This document shows positions 3,001-33,800 of a stretch of DNA of 64,000 nt, piece after piece. The stretch lies in NCBI GenBank assembly GCA_010093815.1, contig ML996569.1, one strand, 5' to 3'. Under the pieces are notes generated by a model. That model saw nothing but the letters and a program-made list of their open reading frames with translations. It searched no databases and was not told where the DNA came from. The translations under genes and the position numbers were made by a program. Source of the stretch: Pseudovirgaria hyperparasitica (Eukaryota). Within the stretch, counting starts at the first letter, position 1, and the number at the start of each line of letters is the position of its first letter.

Positions 3001-5852
3001 GAGCAATTTCAACAGAAGACCTAGTTGACCCAAATACGGCGTGAGAACGACTTGTTGATCGGTGCCATAGCCTTGCTGCGCCAAATATCGGACGACTTTA
3101 AGGACCATTTCAGCCTCATACAAATTCTGGCGGCTGACTTTTGACCCCTCATCGCGTCGATCCCTAATCTTATCTTGTTGGAGTTCAGGCACAGAATGCT
3201 TGAGAAACACAACGTTTGACTGAAGTCCACGGATGGATGGCCGGTTCATCGTGCTAGTTGCGTCTTCGAGGTTCGGATATGTAAGTCGTCTAACTAAAGT
3301 AGAAATCTCAGGGCGCATGCGATGCTGTTTAGCCAAAGTGGAATGCGGGAAGCCATTCAAGACTAGGCGTTCGAAGAGAGATCTATTGAGGTCGTATCCG
3401 TCACCTTTCTCGATAGTCAGGGCATAGTTGTTCACCTTTGGACGAAGTTGCTTGTGGTCGCCAATCAGTACTAGATGCTTCGTCTTTGCAGAAAGTGCTG
3501 TAAGGATATGCGCTTCAAGTATCTCTCCGGCTTCTTCAACCAACACAATTCCAGGTTTTGCACTGAGCAGCTCCTTTGAGTATTTTGCCGCAGCAGTTGT
3601 AGTACAGCCAATAATTCGCTTTGATGCAATGATCTCGGCATGTTTCTGTCCTTTTGATTCAGTGAACTGTTCATAAGCTTCACTGTAATCATGTAGCACA
3701 TCTTGCAGGAGAGTGGCCCCTTCCTTATAGAATTCAAGTGTCCATCTATCGTAGCATTCCCTTCGAGCAGCAACATCCATGCGCCAGACGTTTTCGAATT
3801 CTGTATTCGAGGCATCATTGAAGATCCCTCGATCTTGACCTGCCAACCATTGGTCCAGAAGGTAGAATTGGTCAACTTCTTTCCCTTTTCGCCCTATTCT
3901 TCTCATTCCGTCATCGCTACTCGGAACACTCAGGGCATTGTAGAAGTGATAGTCATCTGAACACTCGAGATAATTCATGATTTCCTCTTTAGGTGCTCTC
4001 AAGTTCCTGAAATCTGCGGACTGCTTTTCAAGCCTGTCGTCGAGATTGTCTACTCTTTCCCGACGGGAGTTGAATGTATGCCACTGGTCATGGGTTCGAC
4101 GATAAGACGAGGATTGCTCATAGAGGGATAATTGCTTAGTTGCCTCCGTCGACTTCGATCCAAGGCGAAGCATTACACTTTCAGGAACGCCAATCTTCAT
4201 AATGTCGGCGAGAAATTGATCCAGTGCATGATTCGTATACGTCAGAACTAGTATTTTCTCATCGGTATGGTGAAACAGGACCATAATCAGTAGTGCGCCA
4301 ATGAACGATTTACCAGTGCCTGTAGAGCACAGTTAGAGTGGCCTAAAATAAATGCTTAAGCCTTACCTGGAGGTCCTTGAATCAGGCTCACCTGGTTCTT
4401 CAAACCGGAGATAAGGGATTGTATCTGCGAAGGATCTAGATACACGTCGATACAGAGACGGAGGAGCGTACGCAGATTTTGACCAGAACACGATTCAATA
4501 TCTTCAATGAGGTCAAGGGGAGCAAAGGGTGATTGAGCTACGCTACGGATGTCATCGCTTTGGAGGAGCTGACCGGATAATGGCAATGATGTGATCTGTT
4601 GTAGCCTCCTGAGAATTGGGTCGTACGCGAAGTACGGTGTGTCGACTTGAACGAACTGGAGGTTGTCTTGATGAGTCATCTTTAGAGTGAGTAGTGTTTT
4701 AAGCATTGCGGACCCCCCGAATACTTGCAGTAATAGTACTGGGGGGCTCTTTGCTAGGAAGTCCGTATTTCGTTCTACAATGGCAAATGCAACAATCTCA
4801 TTTGACGCGAGAATGCAACCGAAAGAGTCGTGTTTCAGTATGTTTTTATTCTCTTCAAAGAAGCGCTTACGAGCCTCCAGATCGTAGGGCAGCTTAGGAA
4901 ATCCTTTGTAGCACCGCAGCGCAATCGAAGCAGGCCTTCTTCTGGTGTCGCTGCCGCATTGTATCCCGTGAAACACCAATCCTCCCAGACTCACAGAGGC
5001 TCGCCGCCCTTGTTTACGTCCCATCGCAACTTTTAGCTCCTCGCGTAATTCTGCCAGCATATCCTCTCTCAGGAGACGAAACTGGTTGTCAACATGGACG
5101 GCCGCCCGCTTATCAGGTTCTACAGCGAGAACTGAATCAGCTTGCAAGTAGTACGCCGGGTCCCTTGAGAGAAACTCATCAGCGGTTGGGAAGATAGCAA
5201 TCTTGCGATAGTCCTCAAAGTCGTTGTCGTGACGGCCGCCAGGCTTGATGATAGCCCCGGAGTAAACTCCTGATCGTTTGCTGTTGAGCACATCTTGAAT
5301 TTTGTACGCGACACTGCGAATGTCAGAATTTGATGAGGCTAATAGCCCGCCCCCAGCTGTGAGAGATTCTTGGGATATTTCAATGATATCTGATGGAATG
5401 GAAACAGTCGAGAATGAGATTAAGAGCAAATGAAGAAGGGTCGCAAACGCCTTTGTGCCGTTTTCTGAAAGGCCTCGGTTGCGGAAAGCTCCTACTAGCG
5501 CCACCCAAAACGTCGGCGGGTCAACCACGACCATCAGCAGATCTCGCAACAGCTGTCCACCACAAAGTTGTTTGATTTCGTCGGATGCGAGAGACAAGAG
5601 GAGCTGAGAGCCTGTCTCATTCATGAATTGCGGCGTGATGTTCACACGAAGGGTCATCTTCAGCGCCTGCAGACCGTTCTGCGATGCCGCAAGCCTTTCG
5701 AACGAGCTGATCCTATCTTCTGCTCCAAGGAGCGACCGAACGAACAGTTCTGCTTCATTGGAACTTTTAATCGCTCTGGACCCGCCAACAAAGCTCAAGA
5801 ATACTTTGCGTAGCCTAGCCACGTCAATAGCTGAAGCAGTTTCGTTCGACAT
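1..5852 (-). CDS. ZNFX1/NFX1-type SF1 (Upf1-like) helicase fused to CbbX/SpoVK-type AAA+ ATPase domains; 3' end runs off the window
   Basis: ATG at 5852. GT-AG introns at about 4320-4366, 2824-2882, 2433-2486, 1622-1686 and 670-718 join the ORFs. Splicing restores QGPPGTGKSF (Walker A), VSTIDNFQGEESD and GNPGTGKTT. Other motifs: GGRHDNDF, TYTNHALDQF, VEEAGE, LIGDHKQLRP, QHRMRPEI, RLNVLLSRAR, a short Cys/His-rich zinc region, FIDEAY, GSPGTGKTT and VIDEAY. Confidence 0.9.
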
Positions 5853-6540
5853 TGTTTCAAAGAATGAGTTGTGATTGAGTGCTAAACGACACTGTGAAGC
5901 CAACTCTGGTTGCAATATAATCCAATGAGTAGGATAAGATACCTATACCAACCCCAGCCGTGTTGCAATCTCTCACTACATCAGCATAGAAAAACAACTA
6001 AGGTGATACAGGTCCATAGTGTATACGCATCCCATGGACCATGGGACACAGCCTGACAACCCCAGCCTGTGCCAGCGCAGAATGAAATATACCTAATGGT
6101 CGATCCTTTCTCCAACTAGCCTTCTCATTAAGCTAGCCTTCTCATGAAGGTAAGGCTCCGCTGGTGTCGGGTAGAACAGTATGCATGAATGAGTCTTTGT
6201 GAACTCTCTGTCGTGCCAGGTGTGTGCGACCGGAGATGCTCTAGCACATCAGCAGGGATCTATCACTACCCTGAAAATAGCGGTGCGTTGTGTGGTGCAA
6301 AGCTCCTAATGCCATGTAATGCATATATAACCATCCTCATGGTCATTACCATCATAATTACACGGATAGGCACACACTCGTAATCGATAAGTGCACACAT
6401 GCCCCCCCAACAATTACACGGGACACACACACACGCATATATGTCGTCAGCTAGCATCGAAGGTTTACCTTCTACTGTTTCGCGTGGAAATCTCCTGCTT
6501 CTCTCACCCGAGCATCGCAGAATCGAATACAGAACTGGAA

Positions 6541-8072
6541 ATGAGGTACGAAAGCCGCCCCGACCGAGCTTACCGGCCTAGTACTTCCTTCTCTAGGGGT
6601 AGTGGAGCTAGCTCTCGAGGTATCTTCAACGTCAGTCAAAATCGTTGGCGTCGAGCTACTGAGGAAAGGCCCCCATCACCTCCCTTGGGTCCGCTGCTGG
6701 AGACCGTGACTAGAGACGAGTTGATCTCTGAGATTTCCATGGGCGAGTACGAGGTCGCCGATGCTTATATCACAAATGTCGAGTATCTTGCCTCGTATAA
6801 CTGGACTACTCAAGAGGAAGTCCTTATAATTCCAGGTATGCATGTATTACATCACATCGAATGGATTAAATTAAATTTGGCGAAGGATGTCCCCCAGCGT
6901 GGACTCCCATACAAGAAGCACGCAAATTAGCACCTGATAGTGGCAAGTATCTCCGCGATCGCAACGCCGCCCAATCTCCAGTACATCCCTTGGAGCCAGC
7001 TGTGCGGGCATTATTTGAAGAGAATGAGGATTTCCGAGGACAGGACATCGACCTCTTTGCATGTTCAAGCACATTTGGAGGCCTACTTCGGTTTGTACTG
7101 GGAGTTGACAAGAGCGTCCGATTCTTTGTTCAAACCTTAGGGAACACCGCTTTCTTCATCCGGCGCGAGAATTCGCCCACTGAGTTGATTTCCAACGTCA
7201 AAGGATATGGGCATGCATTTCCGGAAGCCTATACTACCTGGTCGAAAGATGTGAGAGGTTCAACCTCACATCAGAGACTCCTCAGATACAGATTTGCTGG
7301 GCTTAACGTTGTGTTGCGCTTCGAAGCTGACGGCTACCTCCCTTCCAAGGTTGAACAAGCACACATGACTACTTCAGCGGCCAGTGAAGCTCCAAACGAA
7401 CTCGAATCTTCGCTCAACGGTTTCCGAATCGACAGTTCTGATATTGAACCTTCAGTAGGTTCTAGGACCTGGACTATCAAGCACGCTGGTTCTCGCGTCC
7501 CACAATCCGCCATCTTTGACCTCAAGACGCGATCAGTACGTAGTCCATTCCAGAATGTCTTCGAAGAAGAGAGGCCTCGTTTTTGGGCAGCTCAAATTTC
7601 CAATCTCATTCTTGCCCGCCACGAGCAGGGCGTTTTCAACGAAATCGAAATTATGGAGACCGGCGAAGAAGTACGCAAGTGGGAGAGAGAGAACCAAGAT
7701 AGCCTTCGTCAACTAGGCTCTCTGATTCGCATGATCCTCGCAATAAGCGCATCTCGTACTAATGAGAAACTCGAGGTTTATCGCAAAGATGATGGGTCGC
7801 TCGAGCTCAGAGAACAACTTGGTGACGATCACGAAGTTCTGTCTGCTGGTTTGAAAGAAAAGTGGTTGTCTGATCCCCAAGATACTCCTCCTCTCCCCGG
7901 AACAACCCTTAAACAAAGCGGGAAGTCGACCTTCGAAAACATGGCGCCTGGTAGCGGCCAAGAAAATACTAAGACTCTCGGCGATGGAGATTTGGATGGT
8001 TCATCTGATGAGGACTCCAATGCAGATTTTACGAATTGTTCAGAAGTTTGCGGCTACTGTGGCCGGTGTTGA
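6541..8072 (+). CDS. DXO/Rai1-like PD-(D/E)xK nuclease-fold protein
   Basis: Intron 6836-6885 joins LASYNW...IIPGCPPAWTP to ORF 6990-8072. GYGHAF, FEADG, DLKTRS and RFWAAQ parallel the Rai1/DXO motifs GxxFE, EhD, EhKT and KxWxQ. Acidic, Cys-rich C-terminus (CSEVCGYCGRC). Confidence 0.65.
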
Positions 8073-10003
8073 GAAGGTCTCTATCGTTGGGTACGCTTGA
8101 TGAGAATGATCTACTTTGTGACCGCACACAGGGAGATTACGATAATCTTTGAAGTGTTGTCCCATCTTTCTTTTCCGGTGCTAATGGGCCAATTGTGGAT
8201 TGAGAAGCAGGCAACCTCCCTGGCTTCATTATGACTCACCCAACCTTGAACGCGAGCAAATCGGACTCTCTCTCTACGTGCTGCCACTCATTCGAGACAA
8301 AATATCAGGCGAGTCATTGTCTTCGGCGTGTTGGTGGCGTCTTGTTTGACTATTTCAGCCTTGTATGTAACTTTGGCGGACACTTGTTCAAGTTCATCGG
8401 CGGAGGCCATCCAGCGTATGGGTCGTAGTAGTCTGTTGTCGGGGCTAATGCTCATGTTTCCCGCAGCTTGAGCAATCGTGGTACAAACCTTGATGGGTTG
8501 GCAAATGAAATAGTCTAAAAACCACGGTTAACGGTCGTGCAGAATTCTACACGCATTAGTCTTCAACTGTGATACTACATGTCGACTAGGCTCTGCTCTT
8601 GGTTTGTAACTACGCTACACTACATAGCAAAGACGGAGCCAGTGTGGCATTTTTGTAACTTGCTTTGATTTCTTCCATCTGTACACCTCGATTAGTATAT
8701 GCTCAGATCTCAATAAAGTCCTATACCATGACTGTGTCGCTATGTTCGGTGCTCCGGCCTAACATATACAAATGACCGTGCTCGGGCTGTATGCTAAAGT
8801 CATCTCCTTCACGGTGCCTAAGGCTTTATTCGACTTCGCCATGCGTGTCAAGGGTGCATGGTTTCTACCAAGCCTTGCGTGTATTGGTAAGAGAATTCCA
8901 CAAAGTATAGACAGCCATGGACTTCTGTCTCGGGCCAGAATCATTCTTTTTGGGGGCACATGGGCACAGGTGCGTTGCAATACGCGAAAGTGAATTAGCT
9001 GCATCGGTGCAGAATCAAGATGTGTGACTGCCATCGTGTCTCGCTGCAACTGGGCTCAGGGGGCGCACAAGTCAGCCTCGGCGGGCCCAGACTGAAGAAA
9101 TAAGGCAAATACACAGGGTTTTCGGACTGGGGAGAGTCTCGTGTATATCTATCTGCACGTTTGAGCACAGCCAGGAATTTGCAAACAACGAGTGAGAGGT
9201 TGAATTTTACTACGCGCTTGCCCCGCGAACAGGGGCTGCCTAGACCCGCTAATCCATAGAAATTCATAGGCCGGCTAGGGCGGCCCGAGAGAGTGGATAC
9301 GCTAAAAAACCGAACGGCATTTTAGATCCAGCGCTAAGCCACCGGCTAGACTGGCCAGGGTCCTTGAACTGCCTCCCAACCTCTGTTCTCTCAGAGTATG
9401 TTGTTTCTTGTATGTTCTCATCTTCGAATTTTCCCATGCCGCTCCATTGCTAGACCACCCCATTCACATAGCGATGCAGAGCGCCACTCCAGCTTGGATT
9501 CCAGTGGGGCCGGGGTTGGTTGAACTACAAGTCGGCCGTGGAACCAGCTCGAAGCCGGGGGTATGTAGAAGCGGGAGCATTCCTGCAACTCCGCTTATCT
9601 CGTCATTAGGATTATAAGAGTCGTAGATCAAGTAAGACAGACATGCTTGGATGTCGATCGCACGCCAGCCGGCCCAACGACAACACCCCTGTCATTCCAC
9701 ATTTGATGGGTGATACAGTAAAATCCTTGGCATATGCTGAGAGCCCTTTCGAGATCCAATGGATACCGTCCGCGCTGTTTTTTGGACATCGATAGATTTG
9801 ACCTGTCCGCATAATTCACATACGTGCGTCTGGTGCCCTGGCCTGGCCTGGCCCTAGTGCCTGCGCTGACCCGACTTAAAAAAATGCAATAAAGTTGCAG
9901 GAGGTCGCATCGAATCGTATCCACTATCAGCCAAAGATTGCATTTACTTCATTTCCATGAAACAGCGATAACACAAATAAGAAGAAGCTAGACAGAATCA
10001 GGA

Positions 10004-11590
10004 ATGACATCTGAGCTCCACAACATGCCTAAACCACATTTTCGCAGCAAAGAGGAAAAACAACTTATGAGATTCTATGAACCTCTAGTCCTTCTACACA
10101 CCCTCGGTAGAAGCCGAGGCGACCGTACACAGAATTCCGTTGTATCAACTGGCACTTTCTCGGAAAGGCGGAAGTTCTTGAATAACCTCGCCTATATCTG
10201 CGACTTCAACACAGGGGGCGATACCGTTACATCCATCGCTCTGCAAGATTGCGCAGATGGACCAATATACTGGGTCGCGTCGAATTCAGAGAAGAAAGTT
10301 CTCAAAAGCCATGAATTCCTCATGTCGGTTCTATCAGATCTGTCGAGAGTCTCGGCTGAATCCGCTGAACCAAGTCCCGAACACAAAGAGCGATTGGCTA
10401 CTGAATTGTCCGAGAAGATCATTGTGTTTGCTAAAAAGAGAATCAATGGGTATCGGAGTCATCTGCGAACTGTTCTGCCACGGGCTATTGACTATCTTCA
10501 GAGGCGAGACGCTGTAGAAAGTGAGTATCTTGCAGCCAGATATCAGCTTGAAGTATTTTAATGTGCCCTAGATAGCGATATCTTAGACTGGTTGAACTCG
10601 TGGCGGACTAATGTATATTCGGAAGATGTGTGCCGTTTAGCCTACGACGCAAGAAGGTCCGAAAACATACGCGTACTTCGAAATTTGGGCGAGAAGCAAA
10701 ATCGTTCTGGCAACCGAGATTCAATCTACAACATACTGCATTCTGTCCGACATTACATCGGGCGACTGGGGTATCACTTCTGTGTTGCAAAGGCCTTGCT
10801 CAATTCTGCACGCCCCCTTGCGACGCTCTTGACCAGCTACGAAGTTCGAATCGTTGCACCTATGCCACCAGGTGAGATGCCAGATGCAGATTCGAAAACT
10901 AAGCTTGATGGTATCTTGGTACGAATGATGCCTAACAATGCAGTGGCATTGCCTTCTATGCAGGAAAACCTGCAGGCTATGGATGACAAGTTCGGCCTCA
11001 CGAAGCGGTATCTCGAGCTGTACACTGATCGGAAGTATTCTACGTCGGACAAAAGAAGATCTGCCGGCGTACATGCTGAAATCAAAGTCCTCGAGTACTT
11101 CTTCACGCAAAAATTTAGATTCGTGGATAACGACAAATTCATTGCGACCAGCAAGCCATCATGCTATTGCTGTCATCTTTACTTTAAGCACCACCCATTG
11201 ATGCCCTCAGAACCCGCCACTCATTGTAACATCTACTTGAACTGGCGTCCACCTCAATTCGTAGGAGAGCACTTCAAGAACTCGGTACGCGATCACCCAC
11301 GCCACATGTTATTCGCCATGATTCCCGATATCCGACAAGAGGCTCTACAACAAATTCTTGAGAGATCTCCTCCACGCCAATCTCATCCAGACTCTAACAC
11401 TGGGATCACGGAATCTGCCAACCTTGGGCACGCTTCAATACCAGATTTGTCGCACGAACTTGAGCGGTTATCTCTCGCTGGAGACATTGCCTCGTGTGTT
11501 GGTGACTACAGCGATGACATTCGACTGAGCGACTTAGAAAGCTCTGATGATGAGGAGGGCGGAGGGATCAGTCTTCTAGACTATGAATAA
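10004..11590 (+). CDS. OTT_1508-like nucleic acid/nucleotide deaminase
   Basis: Intron 10521-10571 joins two ORFs in frame. Zinc-deaminase motifs VHAEIKV and TSKPSCYCC; N-terminal FLNNLAYICD...GGDTVTSIAL. Confidence 0.8.
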
Positions 11591-13836: not shown

Positions 13837-14316
13837 ATGGCTCGAAATAAGCATCACAGGTCCCGTGGTACCAAGGCTACATACACGTTCACATCTCTTC
13901 ACCAAAATATCCTTGAAGCCATATCATACGATATCAACCACGCCTGGTTTTGCGGGGCCAAGAATCGGCAGATTCCAGAAAACGAATATCAGACACATGT
14001 TATGGGCAAGTTTAGATGCGTCAATGTGGCCTGCGACGCTACATGTTGGAGTAGTAAGAAGGTGGCTATACTGATTCGAGGCTTCTCGAACAACGGCTAC
14101 AACGCTGAAGTCTTTGGTCAGCGTTGTAAATCATGCAATAATCTCGGCTTGCTGGAACTAGACGAGGAGTCTTACGTGGAGCGAGTGGCGTACAGGGTCA
14201 AAAAGTGGGCAGGAGTCCACGCGGAGCGTCCGGTATATAATGGAAAGGAAGGCCCGCCGCATGAGAGGAGTTTATGTGAAGGATGCAAGAGGGGGGTCTG
14301 CCGATTGGGAGACTAA
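13837..14316 (+). CDS. zf-3CxxC zinc-binding protein (RTP/ZAR1-like domain)
   Basis: GKFRCxxxxC...WSS...VFGQRCKSC...GPPHERSLCEGCKRGVC is the 3CxxC pattern; intronless; first ATG at 13837. Confidence 0.85.
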   Translation: MARNKHHRSRGTKATYTFTSLHQNILEAISYDINHAWFCGAKNRQIPENEYQTHVMGKFRCVNVACDATCWSSKKVAILIRGFSNNGYNAEVFGQRCKSCNNLGLLELDEESYVERVAYRVKKWAGVHAERPVYNGKEGPPHERSLCEGCKRGVCRLGD

Positions 14317-14789: not shown

Positions 14790-15482
14790 ATGACAAGACT
14801 ATCGACTTCAAAATATCTGTCTAGTACCATCATGCCGACGAAAGCAACCAATCCCCCGAACATATACCTAATTGGTGCACAATGTACTGGAAAGACGACC
14901 CTGCTGGCAGCGCTACAAGCTTTCTTCTCTGATCCCAACAACCGTACCAGAAGCGAAGCTGGAGCATTCGACCCTCCAGCTATAATCCCCGAGGTTGTAC
15001 GCGAAGTCATGGAACTTGAAGGCTTCTCTGCCAGCGATATTAAGGATACCAGATGGCAAATCCTACAGCGTCTCACGCTGGAGGCGCAGTGTTTGGCCGA
15101 GGAAAAGCTCACCGACCAATGGTACATTTCTGACCGTTCTGGATTAGACCCAATTATCTATGCACAACTTCAGGAGACGAACGACGCGCAGGCAATGAAA
15201 GAGTCAGCTAGCTGGGCGGCATCGCAGCAACGGATGAAAAATAGTCTCGTCATCCTATGTGAAGCTGGTAACCCAGACTGGTTCAAGTTGGACACTGCCC
15301 GAATCTCCCATTCGGAATCGCATAACTGGCATAATATGCATACGAGATACATCACTCTTCTAGAGGAGACCGATATCAAATTTTTTCTCCTGGAAAAGTC
15401 AATTACGAAGATTGGTGAGAGGGTCAATTTCGTTATTCGGAAGTTTGAGAGAATGTACACCGAAACGGATACCAGTGCATGA
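14790..15482 (+). CDS. AAA_28 (NadR-type) P-loop NTPase, nucleoside/nucleotide-kinase-like
   Basis: IYLIGAQCTGKTTL P-loop, PEVVRE, and ISDRSGLDPIIY (DRSxxDxxxY, typical of this kinase group); intronless. Confidence 0.75.
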   Translation: MTRLSTSKYLSSTIMPTKATNPPNIYLIGAQCTGKTTLLAALQAFFSDPNNRTRSEAGAFDPPAIIPEVVREVMELEGFSASDIKDTRWQILQRLTLEAQCLAEEKLTDQWYISDRSGLDPIIYAQLQETNDAQAMKESASWAASQQRMKNSLVILCEAGNPDWFKLDTARISHSESHNWHNMHTRYITLLEETDIKFFLLEKSITKIGERVNFVIRKFERMYTETDTSA

Positions 15483-16409
15483 GACATAACGCAATCGGCT
15501 AGTCTTGTCAATATAGATTGCTTGTGTCATCTACAAAGTGATCACGCCTGCAGGCCGCCAACTTGCCGTTAGGTTTTCTGACGAAAAAGGCTTACAGAGG
15601 ACTTCTGCTTTATATAGAATTCAATCTCAAATTCGTTTTTCGAGTGCTCTCCGCTTTCTGAGTCTAAAGAATGATGCTAGAAGTCTCCAACAGGTGCTGT
15701 TACCAACTGCTCTAAATCTATCTCACTAGCTTTGTGACTGAGGTCCATTAAATTAAGAACTATAAGGTACGTGCCATCCATTTTTCAAGACCTACTATCG
15801 TAATCAAATGACAATGCTTTATGGGGGCTAGGCTTCTCTATACTCTCGTGGCATTTAGAGACGTCGCCCACGTAGCGATGGATCATCGTGTCATGGTAAA
15901 TCATAAGGCCATACATTATAGATCTAGTATACGTCTCTATGGGACGATGCTTTTGTTTCTACATTGACTTCTAATTCTCTACCTTTCTCTGATAAACCTC
16001 AAACGTTTACATGATGGTTAGTGTCGTTATCGTAGCATATACTAATATAAGTCTTTCGACTTATGCAACATAGACTCTCGCATGACGGAGCTCTAGCGTC
16101 TAAATACAATTTTGGAATGTTAGAATCACATAGTTTGTACTGAAGTTTTAACATTCATGAAGTAATTAGAGCGTATGCTAATGTCCGAGTAGTAGTATAG
16201 AGGACTTGAATATGTGGTTTTACGAAACATAGCGGAGAAGAAAGTACTTTAATGGTTATTGTTCTTGTTCTCTAGGCTATTGGTAATAGACATCCTCATC
16301 GTCTCGACCCCTAGTCCATAGCATTTGCCTTATGATTCGTTCAACGACATCATGATACGTTGTCTTCCAGTTTGCATAGCCTTCTCAATGTTCCTAAATT
16401 CTCCACGGT

Positions 16410-17105
16410 CTAATTGTCACGGTCGGGATCAAGAACAGTCTCCCTAAGTGCCGATAACAGTTTCTGGTAGGTGGCATTAACATCACCACTTGAGTCGACC
16501 TAAACGTGAGTTAGTGATTGAAACACATGAGAAAAAGGACAACAAAGTCACCGTGACAAGAATTCCCCTATGATTATATTCCGCAAGGATCGGACTGTTG
16601 AGCCTAACGAACTCTTTGTATCTCTTCTTAAAAACGTCTGTTGTATCGTTACGTCCGGGGATGGCTCTGGTCAGATAACGCTGATGAACCAAAGGCTCTT
16701 CGCACTGAAGATGTAGCACCAGGTCAGGGGCCCTGAAACACTTTTCCATATGGAGAGCCTGGTTCAATTCCCGCGGAAAGCCGTCCAAAAGCACCACTTT
16801 AGCTCCGTTAGAGTAAAGGGTATTGATAGCTCTAGTCATTATTGGTTCTAGGTCCGTGATATCTAGTAGCTCGTTGTCGGCAATGCAATTCATGACTTCT
16901 TTGGAAATAGTGTCACTATCGGAAGCAACCATCTCTCGAAGATGATCCCCGATCGACAAGTGGGAGTAGCCAAAATCATCTCTGAGTTTGTGGCAAAGGC
17001 TACCTTTGCCAGAGCCTGGGGCCCCTGAAAGTCCAAATTAATGAGTGTAACTTGGTGGACGGAAATCATATGCTTACCGATCACAAAGACAAGGTACTTC
17101 GTCAT
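16410..17105 (-). CDS. Adenylate-kinase-family nucleoside monophosphate kinase (UMP/CMP-kinase-like)
   Basis: Intron 17025-17077 gives MTKYLVFVIGAPGSGKGSLC...HLSIGDHLRE. Also LLDGFPRELNQA and a short LID (R...GRNDT...KKRY) as in UMP-CMP kinases. A second intron near 16500-16550 gives the C-terminus VDSSGDV...DRDN*. Confidence 0.85.
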
Positions 17106-17770
17106 GTTTGATGAAAAATAAGTTTGAAAGAGGAACTGATTGGTAACGGAAATGGGATTGATTGATACTGCCAATCTTGTGAGGAGGTGACGTGTAAGAA
17201 TAGAACGCCCAAATCGCGCTTGAGGATACTATAATTTGAGTACGGACTGGGGTGTCGGGTAGAAACCAAGCAGAAGTGGAGCTCCCCGTAGGGGAAGGAA
17301 GGAAACTATAGAGCAGAATAGGCTACTTGCCTGGTGAAGAAGGTCTAAAACCTGTTTGTCAGCTGGAGCAGGGGAAGAGCATGAGCTCAAGTCGTACAAG
17401 ATCAAGCTTACCGTCACGTTTGGTCATCTTTGCTATTCTGAGTGAAGCGCCGACAGAATTGGGGGCATGACAAGTAATGACGAGTGTACAATACCAGATG
17501 AACCTTTCTATGTTACAGCCGCAAACGTTTCTAACCTGAACAGTACTTATTGTGTTGGTTACGTTAGAGGATGACGTGCTATTGACGAAAGCTTTGGCAA
17601 GCAATCACTCTTTCTCTGCATGGTGTTTGGCGGTCAGATTACAAATCGTTCATCCTACACTAATGTGCGTGAAGCAAGAGATATATAATACTGTCCCTTG
17701 CCCAGAGGCCGGCGTTCTCTTGCTATATTGACTTTGCGCCATCGAAGAACGATACACACTGAGCGTTTCC

Positions 17771-18796
17771 ATGAACACAATGATCTCAATTTATCTTGCT
17801 GGAGCGATCTTCTTCGCCGTCCTTCTCTCCATCTTTCTCTTTCCAGGACACGGGCATTCGTCTGCACTTTGGTCTGTACATTCGAAGGTTAATTTGGATA
17901 CGGACAGTGTACCGGTCTCCGTCAACTATCATTTCACTCGAAAATGTAACATGACTTGCGGGTTCTGTTTCCACACTGCCACAACATCAGACATGCAGAG
18001 CACCGAAAAGGCTATGCAGGGTATCAAGGCCCTCAAAGACGCGGGGATGCGCAAAATCAACTTTGCTGGAGGCGAGCCATTCCTCTACCCAAAGTTCCTT
18101 GGGACGATCATCGATTACTGCAAAGATATCAAAGTTGAATCTGTCTCTATTGTCAGCAACGGCAGTAAGGTTACACGACGATTCCTCGAGAAGCACGGGA
18201 AGCACATTGACATCCTTGCCATTTCCTGTGATTCATTCGACGAGCCGACTAATATCAAGATCGGTCGCGGAACAGGCAACAACGTAGAGCAGCTATACAG
18301 AGTCAAGGAATGGTGCAAGGAGTTTGGAATCAAGTTCAAGCTCAACACTGTAGTGTGCAACCTCAATTGGCAGGAGGATATGAACAAGCATATTTCGGCG
18401 CTGGCCCCCTTTCGGTGGAAATGCTTCCAAGTCCTCATCGTCAATGGAGAAAACGACTCACCCGAGCGACTACGTGACGCCACTAATTTTCTAATCACGA
18501 ATGAACAATATCAGCAGTTCATCACAAGGCACGCGGGTCAAAAGTCAATAGTTCCAGAATCAAACCGTGTCATGGCTAAGTCTTACCTTATCCTTGACGA
18601 ATACATGCGGTTCCTGGATCGTGATGGACGGCAACCTTCCAAGTCTATCCTGGAGGTGGGGGTACAGAAAGCACTCAAGAGTGTCTTCTGGGACGTAGAA
18701 AGCTTCAAGGAGCGCGGAGGGATATATGACTGGCAGGCTACTGGCTCGAGTTGTGGCTCAGTTGAACAGAGTGACCAGAAGGAATTGGACTGGTGA
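17771..18796 (+). CDS. RSAD2: Viperin / radical SAM ddhNTP synthase
   Basis: SVNYHFTRKCNMTCGFCFHT (CxxxCxxC), KINFAGGEPF, SIVSNGS, DILAISCDSF, FKLNTVV, RWKCFQ, SYLILDEYMRFL, FKERGGIYDW and terminal LDW. N-terminal hydrophobic anchor; intronless. Confidence 0.97.
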   Translation: MNTMISIYLAGAIFFAVLLSIFLFPGHGHSSALWSVHSKVNLDTDSVPVSVNYHFTRKCNMTCGFCFHTATTSDMQSTEKAMQGIKALKDAGMRKINFAGGEPFLYPKFLGTIIDYCKDIKVESVSIVSNGSKVTRRFLEKHGKHIDILAISCDSFDEPTNIKIGRGTGNNVEQLYRVKEWCKEFGIKFKLNTVVCNLNWQEDMNKHISALAPFRWKCFQVLIVNGENDSPERLRDATNFLITNEQYQQFITRHAGQKSIVPESNRVMAKSYLILDEYMRFLDRDGRQPSKSILEVGVQKALKSVFWDVESFKERGGIYDWQATGSSCGSVEQSDQKELDW

Positions 18797-19829: not shown

Positions 19830-21839
19830 ATGTCTCTCGAGAAGCCTGTCATCATTGGCATCTATGGGCTACCTGGAGCCGGCAAATCATATCTCATGAG
19901 GCAGCTCAAGGAGAAGCTCAGTGAGACCGACTTCCTCTTCTTTGAAGGTTCGGAAGTGATTGCAACTTTAACCCCGGGAGGTCTCGATGCCTTCAAGCGA
20001 CTCAGTCAGGAGGACCAGACCAAGTATCGACATGCTGCGGGAATCTCTATCAAAGAGCAGTGCAAGTCTCTCAAAGCAGTCGGGGTTGTCACGGGTCACT
20101 TCATGTTCTGGAGTGGAGGTGAGGAGGAGGCGAATGAGGTCTGGACTGCTGCTGATGCAGAAACCTTTTCCCACATTATCTATCTGGACGAGATCACATC
20201 CGTCATCTCCACAAGACGACAGAATGACACTGTCAGAGACCGTGAAAATGTATGTCTCGACCATATCCACCGCTGGAAGGAGACTGAAGAGGATCGACTT
20301 CGCAAGCTCTGTGGAACCCACGGCATAATTTTCACCAGAGCCTTTCCTTATCCGGATATGCTACAGAGAGTCGTCCCATTGATTCAAGACTTCGCCACAC
20401 ATACGGAGGCTCGCAACCTTGAAAAGGCGTCTGCCAAGCTCGACATGGCCCTCTCTGAAAGTGATGGCAAACTCGACACACTTGTCGTTATCGACGGTGA
20501 CAAAACTCTGGCTCCACAAGATGCTGGTCAGATGTTCTGGGACCGCTACTGTATTCAGAAGCTGTCCTGGAAGGAAGCCTGGACCCCAACATCAGTTCAT
20601 TCAGGGCCTCTTGGTTACTCATATGAGGCCTTCCGACAAGTCGCACTGCTTCATGATGAAGCACTTGGTCAGAAAGATTTCGACGATCTCTGCGACTCCA
20701 TAGCGAAGGATGTTGACTGTCATCCTGAGTTTGTTTCCTTGCTCAAAGAGATATCCAACTCTACTCATACACGCGCAGTTGTTTTAACGTGTGGTCTGAG
20801 CCGCGTGTGGGAGACTGTACTGAAAAAGTTGGAATTAGGTGCCAAAGTCAACGTCATCGGTGGCGGACGGTTGTCCCATGATCTTGTAATCACACCAGAA
20901 GTCAAACGATCGCTCGTGCTTCATGCTCAGAAGCAGCGTGGTCTCTTCGTTGTGGCCTTCGGAGACAGTCCCCTCGACATACCGATGCTATGCCAGGCCG
21001 ATAAAGCTGTTATAATTGTTGGCGACGAAAAAACTCGAAGCCGATCTATGGATACTAATCTCACGTCTATTCTCGAGAATGATGAGTACAGGCTCAACGC
21101 TGTACAGATACCCCTGCCTCCAGAAGTAGTACCACGTCTGGACGTGAACAAACTCCCAGTCATCAATTTCGACAACCTTGAGCTTAATCGCGCTATCTTC
21201 CATTCAGGTACAGGTCTTAAACTTCATCATGCGACATCCAATGCAGCCGCTAAAGTACTTGCGACATCAATGCGAGATGCATCTGTCGGCGGTCCAGAGC
21301 TTCGCGAAAGACATCGCCGAGCAGGATTCTACTTGGCCGCCCAATTCGTGTCCAAGATCGTTGGACTTGAGGAATGCGAGATCCGACATGTACTCGGTCA
21401 TCAAGACCACGGTTATTGCCTCCTTCATGAGAGAAAGACTCTAATTGTCCCCCTGATGCGTGGAGGAGAACCGATGGCCTTTGGTGTGAACGATGTCTTC
21501 CCGAAGGCTAGTTTCGTCCACGCTAAAAATCCACCCGATATCACTGAGCTTCATCTACAGGATTGCTCTACCGTAATTTTAGTTGACTCCGTTATCAATA
21601 CCGGAAAGTCTCTCGTTGAATTCGTTACCCATGTCCGCGGTATCAACACCAAAGTCCGCATAGTAGTAGTCGCAGGGGTGATCCAGGCCGATGCGATTGC
21701 GAAGAGTAGTCTTCTTGCTGAGCTCCCTAAGGACTTCCGTCTCGAAGTCATTGGCTTGCGTCTTTCTAAGACGAAGTTCACTGGACAGGGAACTACCGAC
21801 ACTGGGAACCGCTTGTTCAACACCACTCACCTCGACTAA
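19830..21839 (+). CDS. Three-domain fusion: P-loop kinase + HAD phosphatase + uracil-phosphoribosyltransferase-like domain
   Basis: GIYGLPGAGKS (P-loop); VIDGDKTL and AFGDSPLDIPML (HAD motifs I and IV); PLMRGGEPM, VILVDSVINTGKS (PRPP loop) and TDTGNRLFNT (resembles the UPRT C-terminus GDxGDRLFGT); intronless. Confidence 0.88.
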   Translation: MSLEKPVIIGIYGLPGAGKSYLMRQLKEKLSETDFLFFEGSEVIATLTPGGLDAFKRLSQEDQTKYRHAAGISIKEQCKSLKAVGVVTGHFMFWSGGEEEANEVWTAADAETFSHIIYLDEITSVISTRRQNDTVRDRENVCLDHIHRWKETEEDRLRKLCGTHGIIFTRAFPYPDMLQRVVPLIQDFATHTEARNLEKASAKLDMALSESDGKLDTLVVIDGDKTLAPQDAGQMFWDRYCIQKLSWKEAWTPTSVHSGPLGYSYEAFRQVALLHDEALGQKDFDDLCDSIAKDVDCHPEFVSLLKEISNSTHTRAVVLTCGLSRVWETVLKKLELGAKVNVIGGGRLSHDLVITPEVKRSLVLHAQKQRGLFVVAFGDSPLDIPMLCQADKAVIIVGDEKTRSRSMDTNLTSILENDEYRLNAVQIPLPPEVVPRLDVNKLPVINFDNLELNRAIFHSGTGLKLHHATSNAAAKVLATSMRDASVGGPELRERHRRAGFYLAAQFVSKIVGLEECEIRHVLGHQDHGYCLLHERKTLIVPLMRGGEPMAFGVNDVFPKASFVHAKNPPDITELHLQDCSTVILVDSVINTGKSLVEFVTHVRGINTKVRIVVVAGVIQADAIAKSSLLAELPKDFRLEVIGLRLSKTKFTGQGTTDTGNRLFNTTHLD

Positions 21840-24709: not shown

Positions 24710-25842
24710 ATGAAAGCCGAGCTCATGCATACGGAAAGCCACAAGGCTATGGTGGAGATATGTGATTGGAGAGCTGAGATCATCTCAACCTTCATTCGCG
24801 AGCGTTCGACAGTCTTCAACGAACTAATGATATTGAGAAAGAGGGTGAGACGCTTTTTAAGCCCTTAATGATGTATCTGATTCATTGATAGGGTTGGGAA
24901 AACCCTGCAGGGGACACGTTCTTCAAGAAACGACGTCAAGTAGCTGACAATGCCGACGCAAAAACTAAGCTTGCGTTTTTGAACATAATGCAAGAAATTG
25001 CTGAACAAATGGACGCCAAGATGGATATCATAGGGAACAATGAAGCTACCCGCCGAGAGTTTCACATACTGGATCTTTGTCTAGCGCCAGGTGGTTTTGC
25101 AAAGTATTTCAAGAATTCCATCCCGAATTCGAAGGTATGGGGGTTCAGTCTTCCAAAATCATCTGGTGGTCATGAGGTGTTGCTCGATCTACGACAAAAT
25201 TGGCTAGAAGTCACGTTTCAGGACGTTACTATGCTGATGGACGAGATCCTTGGAGGCGCGAGCGATCAATCAGAGTCTGTAAAGGATCATATTGAAGCTG
25301 AGCAGCTTCGAAGCCAATGGCCCTACTCCACGCAAAAATTTGACTTGGTCATCTGTGACGGACAAGTACTTCGGACCCATCAGCGGGCAGAGTATCGACA
25401 GTCCAGCGAGCCTAAAAGGCTTGCCTTGAGTCAGTTGATAATAGCCCTGCAGAGGCTCACTCCTGGCGGAACACTGATTATGCTGCTTCATAAGATAGAA
25501 GCGTGGGATAACATTCAAGTCCTGTCTACCTTTCAACAGTTTTCAGACATCTGTTTTTTCAAGCCCAAGCCATATCATGCTATACAGTCCTCATTCTACC
25601 TAGTGGCAAAGAATGTGAGATCCGAGAGTAGCGCTGCCTTGGACGCAATCATGAAGTGGAGAGAAGCCTGGAAAGCTGCTACCTTTGAAGGCCCGTTGAC
25701 TGAATATGACACAGAGGAGGAGATCATGAAGGTCTTGGGGAATTTTGGGGATGCTTACGTCAAGATGGCTGAGCCAGTCTTTGAAATCCAGAAACTCGCG
25801 CTGGAGCGATCTAGCTTCTGCAAGGCACGACCTCTCAAATGA
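24710..25842 (+). CDS. FtsJ/RrmJ-like SAM-dependent methyltransferase
   Basis: Exon 24710-24844, intron 24845-24891. Motifs ILDLCLAPGGF (SAM binding), DLVICDG, PGGTLIMLLHK and FKPKPYHAIQSSFYLVA. Confidence 0.85.
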
Positions 25843-27893: not shown

Positions 27894-30800
27894 ATGGAAA
27901 GCCGTTTCGTCCCTGGTAGGCTCTCAACCGAGAGTCTCCAACACATCATCAATCATGTTTTCTTGCCTCCGAAGCTTCCACAAGAGGATGATCTCTCCGT
28001 AGACAATGACCTCAAACTTATCACTGCTGTCCTAGAAGCCCTAAAGGACTTTTCGGTGTGTCTCAATGACCTTGAGGTATCGGCTACCTTAAAAATAACC
28101 ACCAGCATGATCGACCGGATGATATCTGCGGCACCAAATGGAACACCTCTGGAAAATCTGGTCGAGAAGCAGATGAATAGTATGATGGTAAACGGTATGT
28201 AAATCCCGCTGATGTTGTCCCTCACACTCGATTATTCAGCTTATGACCGGAACAGATGTGTTAGCATTCAATGTGAAGGCTCAGAATGCAGCGCTCCTGA
28301 TACGTTGTCACGAATCAAAGTACATCTTTGAGGCCTTTGAGGTTTCGTGTCCAAACGCGAGTGTTACAGGAACTAAGGGCCGCCTGAACAGAATCTTCCC
28401 GCAAGAAGCCATCATGATCTCTTCTAGCATCATGAGCGATCCAGCATTTCGGCTGCCGTTCTCTGATATGCTTGTTGATTTGGCTAAAACGACACCTGAA
28501 GACGCCTACAAGATTTCCCGGAAGGCTCAACGTAATCTACCAGAAATACGAGACGTAATTGATCCCCGATACTTTACTGAGCTCGCATTCGGAATACTTC
28601 GTGGCATAGGCACTCCAGTAGAGATTCCACGCATTGAAAAGCGGGCCCAAGACGAAGTCCTCTGGTCAGACACTTATTGCTGCTGGCGGAGGTCACCATT
28701 GTGGACCGTGCTACGTGTAAGTTATCACTCTAAGCACTGATGCAGTCAAAGAAGCTGAACTAATCCATGCTATCTAGGTCGCTATTCAGACTACCCTCAT
28801 GCGACAGATTGGTCCAGATCGTGGCTGCGCAGTGTACAAGGCATTCATGATCCATTTCATGACCCGGCTGCTCATGCAAGCGACACGTGGCAACATGTGT
28901 AGCGATATTCTTTATACAATGCATAGAAAGATTGTTCGACGGTTGCATAAGTTATCCGAGATGAACGAAACTGAGTCCTTCACTTCACTGGCAGGTAAAT
29001 CTACATGGGGTTCGCATATTGAGAATACCATTGAAGCCAGCTATAAGGCTTTGAAATGTAGATGGCATCAGTTGGAATCATGTGCCGATCCTTTCAAGAC
29101 GCAGAGTGCCTGGGATGTATCACGGTTGTCGTTCCAGGATGATACATATCTCAAGATCAAGACTCTGAGATCGTCTCTCGACGCGGTGTTACACCGTCCA
29201 CCCCAGAGCTATAACACAAGGGAAGCTGATATCGGATTTTCCGCCCGCATCTCTAAGATCCCAAACTCCTTGCCTAATATAAATGCATTGGCACAGTCAA
29301 CTGGTCAAGCACAGCGCATCCTACTGTGCGATATTGAAATGTGGATCCAGGATTGCCTGGTCGACTGGACAGACTGCAACTTGAGCAAATCAGACGTCTG
29401 CTCCGATCTTGCCACACTGATGACTGCATATTCAACAGCCGGTCGAGCCTGCTATGTCGATGACCAGGAAGGGCTCTCGCGAATGTTTCTTGTCGTTATG
29501 GAGCTTTGGGTGTGTCTGGATAGAATTGTCACTAGACACGAACCGATGCTGCTTGATCATCCAATAGGTTTCGCGCCAGATCTGTTTGATCCTCTTCTCC
29601 TGCCTTCGAAGTCTCAAATGGCAAGACTTGCTGCTGTTGAAAGCTATCTGACTTCGAGACGTCAGAGCTGCCGTGCCCAGTATCCTTCTATATTTAATGC
29701 CTTTGGCGATAGTAATTCTTTGCCTGTTCGGTATTTTGACGGGTCTGAGAAGCACCAAGAGCTACACAGAACCATCGAAAGAGAAGCCAATACTGTCCGA
29801 GCAAGCAGGTTAGAACTTTTCCGAGCAGAACGTCACCGCTACAACGACTTGTCAAGGAAAGCTAACCAGGCTTCCCATGAACGAATTCAGAAGTCGGGAT
29901 GGGACTGGTACAATGAGGAGACCATAAGCTGGGAGGAGAATGCTTGCCCTCATTGCCAAAAATGCCGGTGGGAGAAAGAAGCCGCAGGATTAAAGATTAG
30001 ACGACATGAGTGGCCTTTGCCATCCAAATTAGCGGAAGCCAAAACAGCTGTCTTCGAGCTAGATTGTCCTAAAGCGATCAGTGTATGGAGGGACATGACC
30101 TACTTTGTTATGGTTGACGTCCTCACAAGTCCCCAGAACTTGCCACGCGATGTTCCAGCCACTGGAAAGTATGGACTGGAAAATTACGACGCATTGCGGG
30201 CTCATTTCATCTCGGACCAGAACCGCATTGTCATCAGGTCTGCCACGAAACCGATTCATGTATCGCATTACCGAGACGCAGATATTTCAAGTGCTACAGA
30301 ACAGTCGATATGCGTCGAGCACGCGATGCAATACGATATTCATGATTCTAGAAACGAGAAAGCTGCACATAAGTTTATCGGGTACGCGGATGTTCGCAAA
30401 GCATGTTCGCAACCAATAATGGACAAGAACTATGAAGGCTTACAGTCCTGGGTTGACAACACGACGCATCAACCCAATGAGGTGATTGCGAAGCAGTCAG
30501 AGTGTCCGCTCGAATTGTCTGTTCATGAATACCTCTCGTTTGGACACCTCCGCTCTGGTCCCTATCTACAGTGGCATAACATTGCGCGGGCGCTGATCGA
30601 CGGCACCTTGAACTTTAATACAGAAGCAGTGAGTGTTATCCTTGCCCAATGCGCATGGCAGGCTGGTCCATGTTGCGCTGAGGATGATCCAACCATGCGG
30701 GCCTCCCATGGAACGCTAAGCGCTCCCCCTTTTTGTCTTGACCTGCTTGATGCTCTCGAGGAGCTTTTGTCCAACACAAAAGAGAATTGGCAAGGTATCA

Positions 30801-33800
30801 TGTCCATTCAAATCCTTGTCACCCTTACAAGCCGGATCCTAAGCCTAGCGTCGCATAAAGATGTCCGACAGAAGTGCCTTGACATTCTTTGTGAAGCGCG
30901 TAATGTGACTTTCGCATGGACTCGGAAGCTGAAAGAGAAGCTCTCGACCTGCTTTGAGGAAAACGAACGGAAGCAATGGATGGACGTCAGCATCGAAATT
31001 GCACTTTGCTGTTACAGTACTTTTGCATTGGATCTTCCGGACATCGAATTGTTACTTACTTCTGAGGATCTTGTCGCAAAACTGACCGAATGCATGATTA
31101 CAATCGATGAACTACGTCCAACATCAATTGGTAAACTTCCTCGACACATGAGAAGCTCTCTTCTTAGATTTTCTAGGGTAGCACAGATTGTGGAGGAAGT
31201 TCTGTGCAGGGTCATCCTTCGAAACGGCAATGGACTGAATCGGAGTATCACTAGTTTATGGGAGTCCTACAGCCCTGGTAGTCCCTGGCAGATAGCTGTA
31301 CGCGGGCAGCGTGAATGGTTGATGACAAAAACGGCCGAGACAACAGACTCTGGCACGGTACCAGTGTACTTCAATCTACTGACAGGGAGTCTACTTGTGA
31401 ATGGGTCACCTCTTACGCGGCTTCCTACTACTTACGAGCGAAATGCATCCTACCTAAGGCTATTCTCTAAGGTAAGAACATGCATGTCCATAGGAGATGG
31501 AGACTGATATTATCATAGATGTATATCACTGTGATACCGTCAACTATGCGGGGGATGCGGTATGAAAGTCGAACGTCTGTATTCGGATATCAGGTAAGAT
31601 CTCCTGTAAGTACGCAGCTCGCGCCGACATACTGATTTGTTCCGCAAGGTACATTTCTTACTTGATGGTCCAAACCTTGTAATTTGTGCAAGAAAGGAGA
31701 GTGAAACCTTTCGTATTCTACCCACGGACCTGTTGTTTGACGATTTCCCTCCCGCTTTTATCAGTGGATACTCCCATTGGCTGAACCTTTCGACAAAAGA
31801 ATTGGAATTTCGCCCTATTACCAACCCTTGGGTCACATGCAAGTCAAACTGGAGGATACAAAGTTTAGGGGACGCAACCAACATTCTGTCATTGGAAAAA
31901 CTTTTACACCTCGACATGCCTACAATTACTGCGGAAAAGCTTTTACACATCGACATGCATACAATCACTGCTCACCGCATTTACCAGGTGCTGAGCCCGA
32001 TTGAACGTAGGGAACACATCCACATTTCCTATCATCCAGCCTCCCAATCTGTGGACGTCCATCTTATACGCCTACGCCTCGACTTCTTTATCAACGGAAG
32101 CGGGGTACTCGAATGCAGACAACGTCGAAATATGGAAGTAGACAAAAATCAGTCTTGCGGTACATTCACAGGTGTTCGCAATAAGTTGATTCTCCGCTCG
32201 AACAAAGACTCACATCGCTGCATTATCGTCCCATTCGGGGAAGTCAAGCTAGTATCACGAGAGAACCATACCGAGGTCCAGGTGGAGACTAGTAGTGAAA
32301 GCGACATTGAGTATTTTTATTACGAACTAGACATCACGCTGCGTCGTCTGAAAGATAATGATAGCATGAAAAGCTGTTTATTTCGAACTCTGCTTCATGC
32401 TACCTCAAGTCATTGCCTACCGGACTGCTTCACTGGTAGAACAGGTACTGAACAGGCGATTGCCAATCTCAAAGATGCAAGCACGTTATCGTTCCGCACC
32501 TTGAGTTCAGAAGAAATTCAGATCTTGGTGCGGATTGGACAGCTCACTCCGCATCGGGTCTACTATCCTCAGCACATGGCAGTAATGCAAGAGGTAAAGT
32601 GGCATACGGTTCTGCCACCTCTGTCGCAACATGAATCTTTTTACAGTTTAGTTTCTGACATATTCAAGTGTGCACGGGCACAGAAAATGTTCTACACCAC
32701 CGAAGGTTTGCCAGACGAAGGTAGATTCGGTGAGCCAGCTCTCTTAGCTAGGGCAGAGATCCGCAACTCCATCTTTAGAGGAATCGACTATGGAGGTGAG
32801 AAGCATAGTACTGTTCATGACAAGGCGTACCAAGAGAGCACAAAAACCAAAGAGGCAAGTGTCTGTGGGCTGACATCCTTGGTGAATGCGTGGCCTAACC
32901 GGTTGAGTCCTCCGAGTACCCTTCTAAGCATCATTGAGGACTGGGAGGGTACACTCAGAGGGCAGAACGCATCTTCTCACCACGATTCTCTGAGATATAA
33001 CCACACCTGGAAAGGAACACCGGATATAATGTTGAATTCGTTTTGCGAGCTTCTTCATCTCCTTTCACATGCTCGAGAGGAGCAGCATAAATATCGCATG
33101 GCTATCAGTCTTAGTACCCTCGTATATTCCGATATGAACATGAACCCTCTATGCGAAGCTCTTCTGGGTTTTGCAACGCTACCAGAACTTCGAGCCCTGG
33201 TAATGCCGCATTACAGTACGTACAACTTGGGAGAGGGATATGAGCCTACACAAACCGCTCTAAAATATTTGATCAACAGTGCCGCGAAGGACTTCAGCCA
33301 ATGCCCGGAAGCCTTGTTGCCGGCTCTCAGATTCGAGAAAAAGTGGCAAAGTAATGATCGAAGACGTGGCCTACACACTGAGGCTAAAGAGAGCAAGGCA
33401 AATCAACTCGTGGATCAGCTACTTTTACTATGGCCTACCGATACAATCAACATCGCGAATCGAAGCATTTTTGCAACACATTTTAACCTAGACCAAATTT
33501 CTGAAAGTGCAAATACTAGATTCGCCAGCTGGTTCCGGAACAGGAAATTCAAGACCTTTATATCCCAGGCTCAGTCAATTCTCAACCGCCATCGGACTTC
33601 ACCTAGACATACTGCACCTTACAACTTCTCTCGCCTACCCCAGATATCTCGGAAGCAGACTACGCACTTAGACTGGAAACATTTGTTCTCGGGAGAGCCA
33701 CCTAGCATAGAGGCCACGGGAGGGATCGATATGTCGTTGTTTTTGAGGCCCAGTGCTTCTATGCGAGACTGCCAGCGGGTTAGAAGACTTATCGAGCGGG

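Follow-up and report, generated by a model that had tools for sequence, protein, structure and literature searches.

A viperin gene of the fungus Pseudovirgaria hyperparasitica is transcribed divergently from a gene for a nucleoside monophosphate (NMP) kinase, which is probably a dedicated accessory enzyme that forms a substrate-supply unit with viperin. Both genes are located on contig ML996569.1 of assembly GCA_010093815.1, in a stretch of 64,000 nucleotides (64 kb) that was analyzed as a whole and is referred to here as the window. One divergent pair alone proves nothing, and the case is carried by the recurrence of the pair in other named fungi and in metagenome loci. The pair is real and well delimited, and is an instance of an already published pattern.

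The kinase gene occupies positions 16410..17105 on the minus strand. Its spliced product of 196 amino acids is 100% identical to P0001, which carries the database name 'P-loop containing nucleoside triphosphate hydrolase protein [Pseudovirgaria hyperparasitica]'. The start ATG is located at 17105-17103 and the TAG stop ends at 16410. Three exons (17105-17078, 17024-16552 and 16499-16410) are separated by intron 1 at 17077-17025 (GTAAGC...CAG) and intron 2 at 16551-16500 (GTGACT, a CTAAC branch site and TAG), which are both short and carry normal fungal signals. Intron 1 interrupts the glycine codon preceding the P-loop, and an intron is found at the same site in several metagenome loci and in P0002. 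The viperin open reading frame (ORF) runs uninterrupted on the plus strand from 17771 to 18796, stop included, and encodes 341 amino acids. The two start codons are divergent on opposite strands with 665 bp (17106-17770) between them; an earlier note on this DNA, which had placed the ATGs at 17105 (minus) and 17771 (plus), was exact to the base. The public viperin model P0009 has only 326 amino acids, starting at the second ATG (17780) with a 36-nt intron at 17872-17907 removed. A length of 36 nt is unusually short for a fungal intron. The segment is open and in frame, and the 12 residues in question are missing from 15 other fungal viperins. Both the 341- and the 326-residue reading are possible, and the catalytic core would be the same either way.

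By its sequence, the ORF at 17771-18796 is a viperin, a member of the radical-SAM family of 3'-deoxy-3',4'-didehydro nucleoside triphosphate (ddhNTP) synthases. The protein matches the viperin structures of Trichoderma virens (6b4c and 7n7i) with E 5e-133 over residues 43-341 and mouse RSAD2 (5vsl) with E 4e-97, whereas the next radical-SAM family reaches only E 1.7e-6. The Radical_SAM domain (PF04055) scores 66.4 bits. In an alignment of 17 fungal viperins a total of 118 columns are invariant, among them the cysteines of the CxxxCxxC motif (C59, C63 and C66) and W341 of the C-terminus, which reads ...KELDW. The N-terminus forms a hydrophobic helix. The LDW end fits the C-terminal tripeptide [LIM]-[DES]-[WF] for targeting by the cytosolic iron-sulfur (Fe-S) assembly (CIA) machinery, which reads this signal (bioRxiv 10.1101/2023.05.19.541488). 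T. virens viperin has the cysteine motif, an arginine in the beta-8 loop and a C-terminal [L][D/E]W in common with the window viperin, and Trichoderma species carry the same linked kinase. The two viperins differ in the N-terminal 45 residues, and the window protein has 12-13 extra residues before the core. The beta-8 loop of the window viperin, RFLDRDGRQPS (with R284), aligns with RFLDRNGQQPS of T. virens. According to Shomar et al. (bioRxiv 10.1101/2023.09.13.557418), the residue selective for uridine triphosphate (UTP) is a beta-8-loop arginine, Arg257 in T. virens, in place of the Cys314/Lys319 pattern of the mouse protein, and the viperins of T. virens and of an Aspergillus made mainly ddhUTP. 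The published number Arg257 disagrees with the numbering of P0064, and we infer which arginine is meant. By analogy with the T. virens enzyme, the most likely substrate of the window viperin is UTP.

The kinase is neither a member of the CMPK2/thymidylate-kinase family nor a canonical URA6, as judged from profiles and identities. It matches Pfam ADK (PF00406) with 87.7 bits at a cut-off of 26.8 and carries the motifs GAPGSGKG and DGFPR, in agreement with the adenylate-kinase/UMP-CMP type proposed in the earlier note. The claim that its family is other than that of CMPK2 also stood, as P0001 has no match to Thymidylate_kin (PF02223) at E <= 0.01; CMPK2 belongs to this PF02223 (thymidylate-kinase) family. 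Residues of the P-loop, the NMP-binding arginine, DGFPR and the LID (K16, R39, D90, G91, P93, R94, R125, R129, R134 and R144) are invariant in an alignment of 12 sequences, and exon 2 alone matches the short-type NMP kinase structures 1uky, 1tev and 1z83 with E 1e-18 to 1e-20. On the UMP-CMP kinase model TIGR01359 the window kinase scores 105.8 bits, below the cut-off of 207.6. The fungal-type URA6 P0251 reaches 212.7 bits on the same model and 223 bits to yeast URA6 (1uky). The window kinase is 29-33% identical to the URA6 proteins of yeast, Exophiala and Yarrowia, and the same range holds for a CMPK-like protein and an AK1; its identity to kinases adjoining viperin is 37-45%. Canonical URA6s of fungi ranging from yeasts to basidiomycetes share 51-58% identity with P0251, which indicates that the housekeeping gene is far better conserved across the kingdom than the window kinase is within its own class. 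The fold family and catalytic residues are common to the window kinase and yeast URA6, human CMPK1 and AK1, but low identity, scores below both NCBIfam cut-offs, a separate clade, and an altered NMP loop and LID set it apart.

A kinase phylogeny of the kind proposed in the earlier note was built with IQ-TREE and contained 30 sequences, among them 9 viperin-linked kinases, 6 close relatives of unknown context and 10 named URA6s. The viperin-linked kinases and their six close relatives form a 15-row clade with support 100/100, a stem of 2.3 substitutions per site and long end branches, whereas the ten URA6s form their own clade (96/98). In a tree enlarged by 23 metagenome kinases, the window kinase falls in a 24-row clade (98/90) that holds all named viperin-linked kinases and 14 of the metagenome sequences, again apart from URA6. 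Head-to-head viperin-linked kinases of seven loci (L014, L015, L033, L042, L048, L049 and L052) group instead with canonical fungal URA6 (99/99); in the organisms behind these loci, viperin may adjoin URA6 proper or a copy that arose from it recently. Two further metagenome kinases form a separate long branch. Forcing all 33 linked kinases into one clade was not rejected by the approximately unbiased (AU) test (p 0.13), and the deep branching is weakly supported. The kinase may have been recruited once, with later acceleration in the lineage of the window, or several times, and its source may be URA6/CMPK1, the label used by Shomar et al., or an AK1-like gene. By its sequence, the linked kinase of the window belongs to a lineage of its own that evolves fast and is distinct from the housekeeping URA6.

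Linkage in named genomes was judged from consecutive accession numbers or locus tags, which report adjacency but not orientation; the kinase and viperin of the window itself, used as a control, have consecutive accessions. By this measure, linkage was found in eight further named fungi. Neighboring numbers occur in T. ghanense (TFA99676/77), T. citrinoviride (PTB61998/97), T. reesei RUT C-30 (ETS01023/22), T. parareesei (OTA02554/55), Parastagonospora nodorum (HBI56_108370/108380), Fusarium phalaenopsidis (LRP88_12978/79) and Xylographa trunciseda (MMC11_002302/01). Kinase and viperin are three numbers apart in three assemblies of Aspergillus alliaceus/burnettii, and in Trichoderma sp. CBMAI-0711 their locus tags lie seven positions apart. 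Orientation was surveyed, as the earlier note had also suggested, in 80 metagenome loci obtained by a scan with a fungal-viperin alignment, each turned so that viperin lies on the plus strand. With tblastn, the window kinase matched 33 of the 80 loci, in every case upstream of viperin and on the minus strand. Upstream sequence of at least 1500 bp was available in 40 loci; 29 of these gave such a match, corresponding to 18 of 29 non-redundant groups (97% nucleotide identity). With a profile built from these matches, 36 of the 80 loci were seen to hold an ADK-type ORF, which in 35 of them is located upstream on the minus strand, the sole exception being L046 with a kinase downstream on the plus strand. 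The kinase(-)/viperin(+) order is found in 24 of 25 non-redundant kinase-bearing groups. As the metagenome loci are related by descent, the ratio of 35/36 gauges conservation and does not count 35 independent events. Together with the recurrence in eight further named fungi, it places the pairing above chance. Other neighbors of viperin change in identity, side and strand, and the pair alone is fixed.

This variability is seen in a third gene. Unbiased clustering of all ORFs of at least 90 amino acids in the 80 loci yielded three real recurrent families, namely viperin, the kinase and a CYTH-domain protein (PF01928) with an EVERKF motif, which resembles mammalian thiamine triphosphatase (PDB 3tvl, E 6e-11). 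The CYTH gene is present in 33 of the 80 loci (23 of 67 groups), where both its strand and the flank of the pair that it occupies vary, for example at 4168-4956 (+) in L007, 6303-7007 (-) in L003 and 2929-3828 (-) in L075. In three groups without the kinase (L073, L075 and L078) it is the divergent partner directly upstream of viperin. The variable placement of CYTH, set against the divergent order seen in 24 of the 25 groups with a kinase, speaks for a constraint acting on the divergent pair itself. A link between CYTH and viperin is hinted at in print, and a literature search found no paper describing CYTH or a triphosphate tunnel metalloenzyme as a neighbor of viperin. In the window, no significant match to a CYTH gene was obtained within the 64 kb. 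Weak matches to the CYTH profile occur at about 15692-15793 (-) and 16298-16360 (-), between the AAA_28 gene described below and the 3' end of the kinase. They score 6.5-7.3 bits compared with at most 2.1 elsewhere in the 64 kb, and none of 306 other segments reaches 6.6. Position and strand are those of CYTH in loci with the order CYTH(-), kinase(-), viperin(+). The matched region is interrupted by an in-frame stop, no N-terminal motif is present, and a further weak match lies out of colinear order. A decayed relic of CYTH at about 15.7 kb is conceivable on this basis. In L078, a thymidylate-kinase-family (CMPK2-type) ORF with a PF02223 match (7192-8163, -) is followed by CYTH (8655-9773, -) and then by viperin (9746-10729, +), so that this one set of loci includes viperin neighbors of both kinase families.

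In vertebrates, CMPK2 and RSAD2 are arranged head-to-head, and the human spacer is roughly 10 kb long with an intervening long non-coding RNA. The window pair is similar in that an NMP kinase adjoins viperin, but the kinase belongs to PF00406 without a PF02223 match, the spacer is 665 bp and the kinase lacks an N-terminal extension; the probable substrate is UTP in the fungal system and cytidine triphosphate (CTP) in the vertebrate one. Prokaryotic pVip-kinase operons and fusions likewise link viperin to a nucleotide kinase, whereas the window harbors two separate, divergent eukaryotic genes with introns. Closest is the system of Shomar et al. (bioRxiv 10.1101/2023.09.13.557418), in which a fungal viperin lies adjacent to an NMP kinase outside the CMPK2 lineage. 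Vertebrate CMPK2 is said there to supply the nucleoside triphosphate substrate of viperin, kinase linkage is given for 12% of bacterial viperins together with 18 eukaryotic fusions, and most of the viperin-associated kinases are described as CMPK2-related. Fungal viperins are reported to be linked to CMPK1-type and not CMPK2-type kinases, a convergent arrangement tied to their UTP preference. The convergence with CMPK2-RSAD2 put forward in the earlier note therefore agrees with these authors, although as an idea it is not new. A word search of the preprint text gave no occurrence of head-to-head, bidirectional, orientation or promoter, and its passages on the linked kinase make no mention of it as separate from the housekeeping URA6. 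It was the sole paper found in a literature search that joins viperin, CMPK1 and fungi. A literature search found no paper for the locus tags TRIREDRAFT_64288 and TRIREDRAFT_108665 of T. reesei or for SNOG_07909.

The divergent intergenic region of 665 bp (17106..17770) is a candidate shared promoter. It contains a TATA-like element, TATATAA, at 17682..17688 on the plus strand, 83-89 bp upstream of the viperin ATG, which is a consensus match only. The N-terminal match of the kinase and the viperin core are separated by 888 bp in the window and by 260-1187 bp in related loci. Repeats in the window spacer are short and at chance level. The word ATTGGTA, which was enriched among the intergenic regions compared, was rejected as a promoter motif because it represents the conserved exon-1/intron-1 junction of the kinase. 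Upstream of the kinase, at 17427-17406 on the minus strand, a second ATG opens a reading frame that begins, like the real one, with M-T-K, and 16 nt later lies a splice-donor-like 8-mer, CGGTAAGC, that is the same as in real exon 1 and in phase with it. This copy may belong to an upstream open reading frame or may be without meaning, as chance alone should yield one exact repeat of 8 nt in a stretch of 750 bp.

In the proposed supply unit, viperin would convert a pyrimidine nucleoside triphosphate to its 3'-deoxy-3',4'-didehydro (ddh) analogue. Once viperin is switched on, the kinase, presumably acting on uridine or cytidine monophosphate (UMP/CMP), would make more pyrimidine di- and triphosphates available locally by forming nucleoside diphosphates (NDPs) from NMPs and ATP, with a general NDP kinase completing the conversion. 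The short shared spacer would allow both genes to be induced together, and the role of the system might be antiviral, directed against mycoviruses. Several results weigh against this reading. On the NCBIfam AK1 model the window kinase scores 119.3 bits (cut-off 284.1), slightly above its UMP-CMP score, and its NMP-binding loop, the 'DDN' stretch of the LID and the second glycine of the P-loop deviate from canonical URA6. A search with P0251 for a housekeeping URA6 of P. hyperparasitica did not return the species among the best 120 of 5594 matches. Of the 40 loci with sufficient upstream sequence, 11 gave no kinase with tblastn, and eight of them still lacked an ADK-type kinase after the profile search and a Pfam scan. 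Viperin is at least 70% identical to a named Pezizomycotina viperin in only four metagenome loci, which makes the taxonomic spread of the orientation survey uncertain. Analysis of k-mer enrichment in 23 intergenic regions, compared with 356 control segments, revealed no shared cis motif, and the top enriched k-mers had no common context, position or strand. Co-regulation of kinase and viperin is something we purely infer, and the fixed orientation could reflect inherited synteny over a very short distance and not selection for a shared promoter.

The same results bear on other explanations of the pair. It is highly improbable that the kinase is simply the housekeeping URA6, lying next to viperin by chance and without a dedicated partnership. 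The protein does fall in the same broad family, the seven metagenome kinases grouping with URA6 (99/99) point to a URA6-like neighbor in some lineages, and a separate URA6 was not demonstrated for P. hyperparasitica by the P0251 search. However, the kinase stands at half the TIGR01359 cut-off and is 29-32% identical to canonical URA6, compared with 51-58% among fungal URA6s with P0251 as query; it belongs to a long-branched clade apart from URA6, and its named relatives adjoin viperin. Moreover, a word-index search with the kinase returned only 8 relatives among 5.8 billion clusters, whereas close orthologues of a housekeeping gene would number in the hundreds. A partnership that is genuine but concerns another substrate, with the kinase serving re-phosphorylation or salvage of ddh-nucleotides or the AMP/ATP balance, is judged unlikely. 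It would suit the NMP loop and LID that are unlike those of URA6, the GAPG that replaces the GGPG of canonical URA6 across the linked clade, the long end branches, AK1 as the top NCBIfam model of the window kinase, and the triphosphatase-like CYTH gene often found beside the pair elsewhere, which hints at control of ddh-nucleotide phosphorylation. Against it, other members of the clade score best on the UMP-CMP model (P0005, 135.8 compared with 118.6 bits), and the published reading of a CMPK1-type enzyme supplying UTP is simpler.

Two broader readings concern the locus as a whole. According to one, it is a small metabolic cluster for an exported or signaling nucleoside derived from ddh-uridine, fed by salvage-type genes, and not a system of cell-autonomous antiviral immunity. 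The AAA_28 gene, the NMP kinase, viperin and a fusion of AAA_17, HAD and UPRTase domains indeed lie within 7 kb, and a literature search of titles and abstracts found no paper tying a fungal viperin to defence against mycoviruses. We nevertheless regard this as quite improbable, because the UPRTase fusion is beside viperin in none of the 80 loci (of which 36 offer 3 kb or more of flanking sequence on one side), AAA_28 recurs in two non-redundant groups only, transporter or tailoring genes typical of clusters are absent, and fungal viperins expressed in bacteria yield ddhUTP as antiviral homologues do (Shomar et al., bioRxiv 10.1101/2023.09.13.557418). According to the other reading, which is doubtful but merits mention, the pair is the invariant core of a small, variable, operon-like nucleotide cassette of fungi and related eukaryotes, with CYTH as a frequent companion and AAA_28 as one in the lineage of the window. 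A dedicated, rapidly evolving kinase paralogue would there use its altered NMP site to handle ddh-nucleotides or to tune their phosphorylation state, beyond bulk UMP, and the window would be a variant that has lost CYTH. Such a cassette would produce a chain-terminating nucleotide, keep it in check and recycle it. The dedicated supply unit, which we consider probable, is of interest as functional gene linkage is rare in eukaryotes. The use of a different kinase family in fungi and vertebrates is a clear example of selection that keeps an immune effector beside the enzyme supplying its substrate, and this point is already in print. Added here are the near-invariant head-to-head orientation amid changing neighbors, the separate fast-evolving lineage of the kinase and CYTH as a common third partner. 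These traits make the system readily accessible to experiments in tractable fungi, T. reesei being one example.

Among the remaining genes of the window, a very large DUF6606/DUF3638/DUF3645 protein is encoded at 28213-36325 (+), an FtsJ-like methyltransferase at 24892-25842 (+) and a large superfamily 1 (SF1) helicase (AAA_11/AAA_12) with AAA and AAA_lid_6 modules at 2-5942 (-). None of the three recurs beside viperin in the loci examined, with 0 of 80 for the methyltransferase. The AAA_17, HAD and UPRTase fusion (669 amino acids, UPRTase 137.5 bits) is located at 19830-21839 (+), 1 kb downstream of viperin, and would be well suited to supplying UMP; it was rejected as a conserved viperin partner on the count of loci given above. 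The NadR/Ttd14-like AAA_28 P-loop gene at 14790..15482 (+) encodes 230 amino acids and matches Pfam AAA_28 with 74.8 bits; a sequence comparison of its product with the PDB gave no match. A homologue is located 142-260 bp downstream of viperin in L001, L002 and L034 and in L008, which are the nearest relatives of the window, and the viperin model P0086 of Alternaria panax (405 amino acids) carries viperin and PF13521 domains merged in one protein. By these comparisons, the AAA_28 gene is probably a lineage-specific accessory of the locus. Upstream of the pair lie a gene for an OTT_1508-like deaminase at 10562-11590 (+) and a 3CxxC zinc-ribbon gene at 13837-14316 (+); 3CxxC is a domain of the mammalian RTP family. 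A homologue of the deaminase flanks the kinase only in L001 and L002, and one of the 3CxxC protein occurs only in L005, at 6.4 kb from viperin. The presence of these two genes near the pair may be due to chance or may mark a neighborhood of conflict genes.

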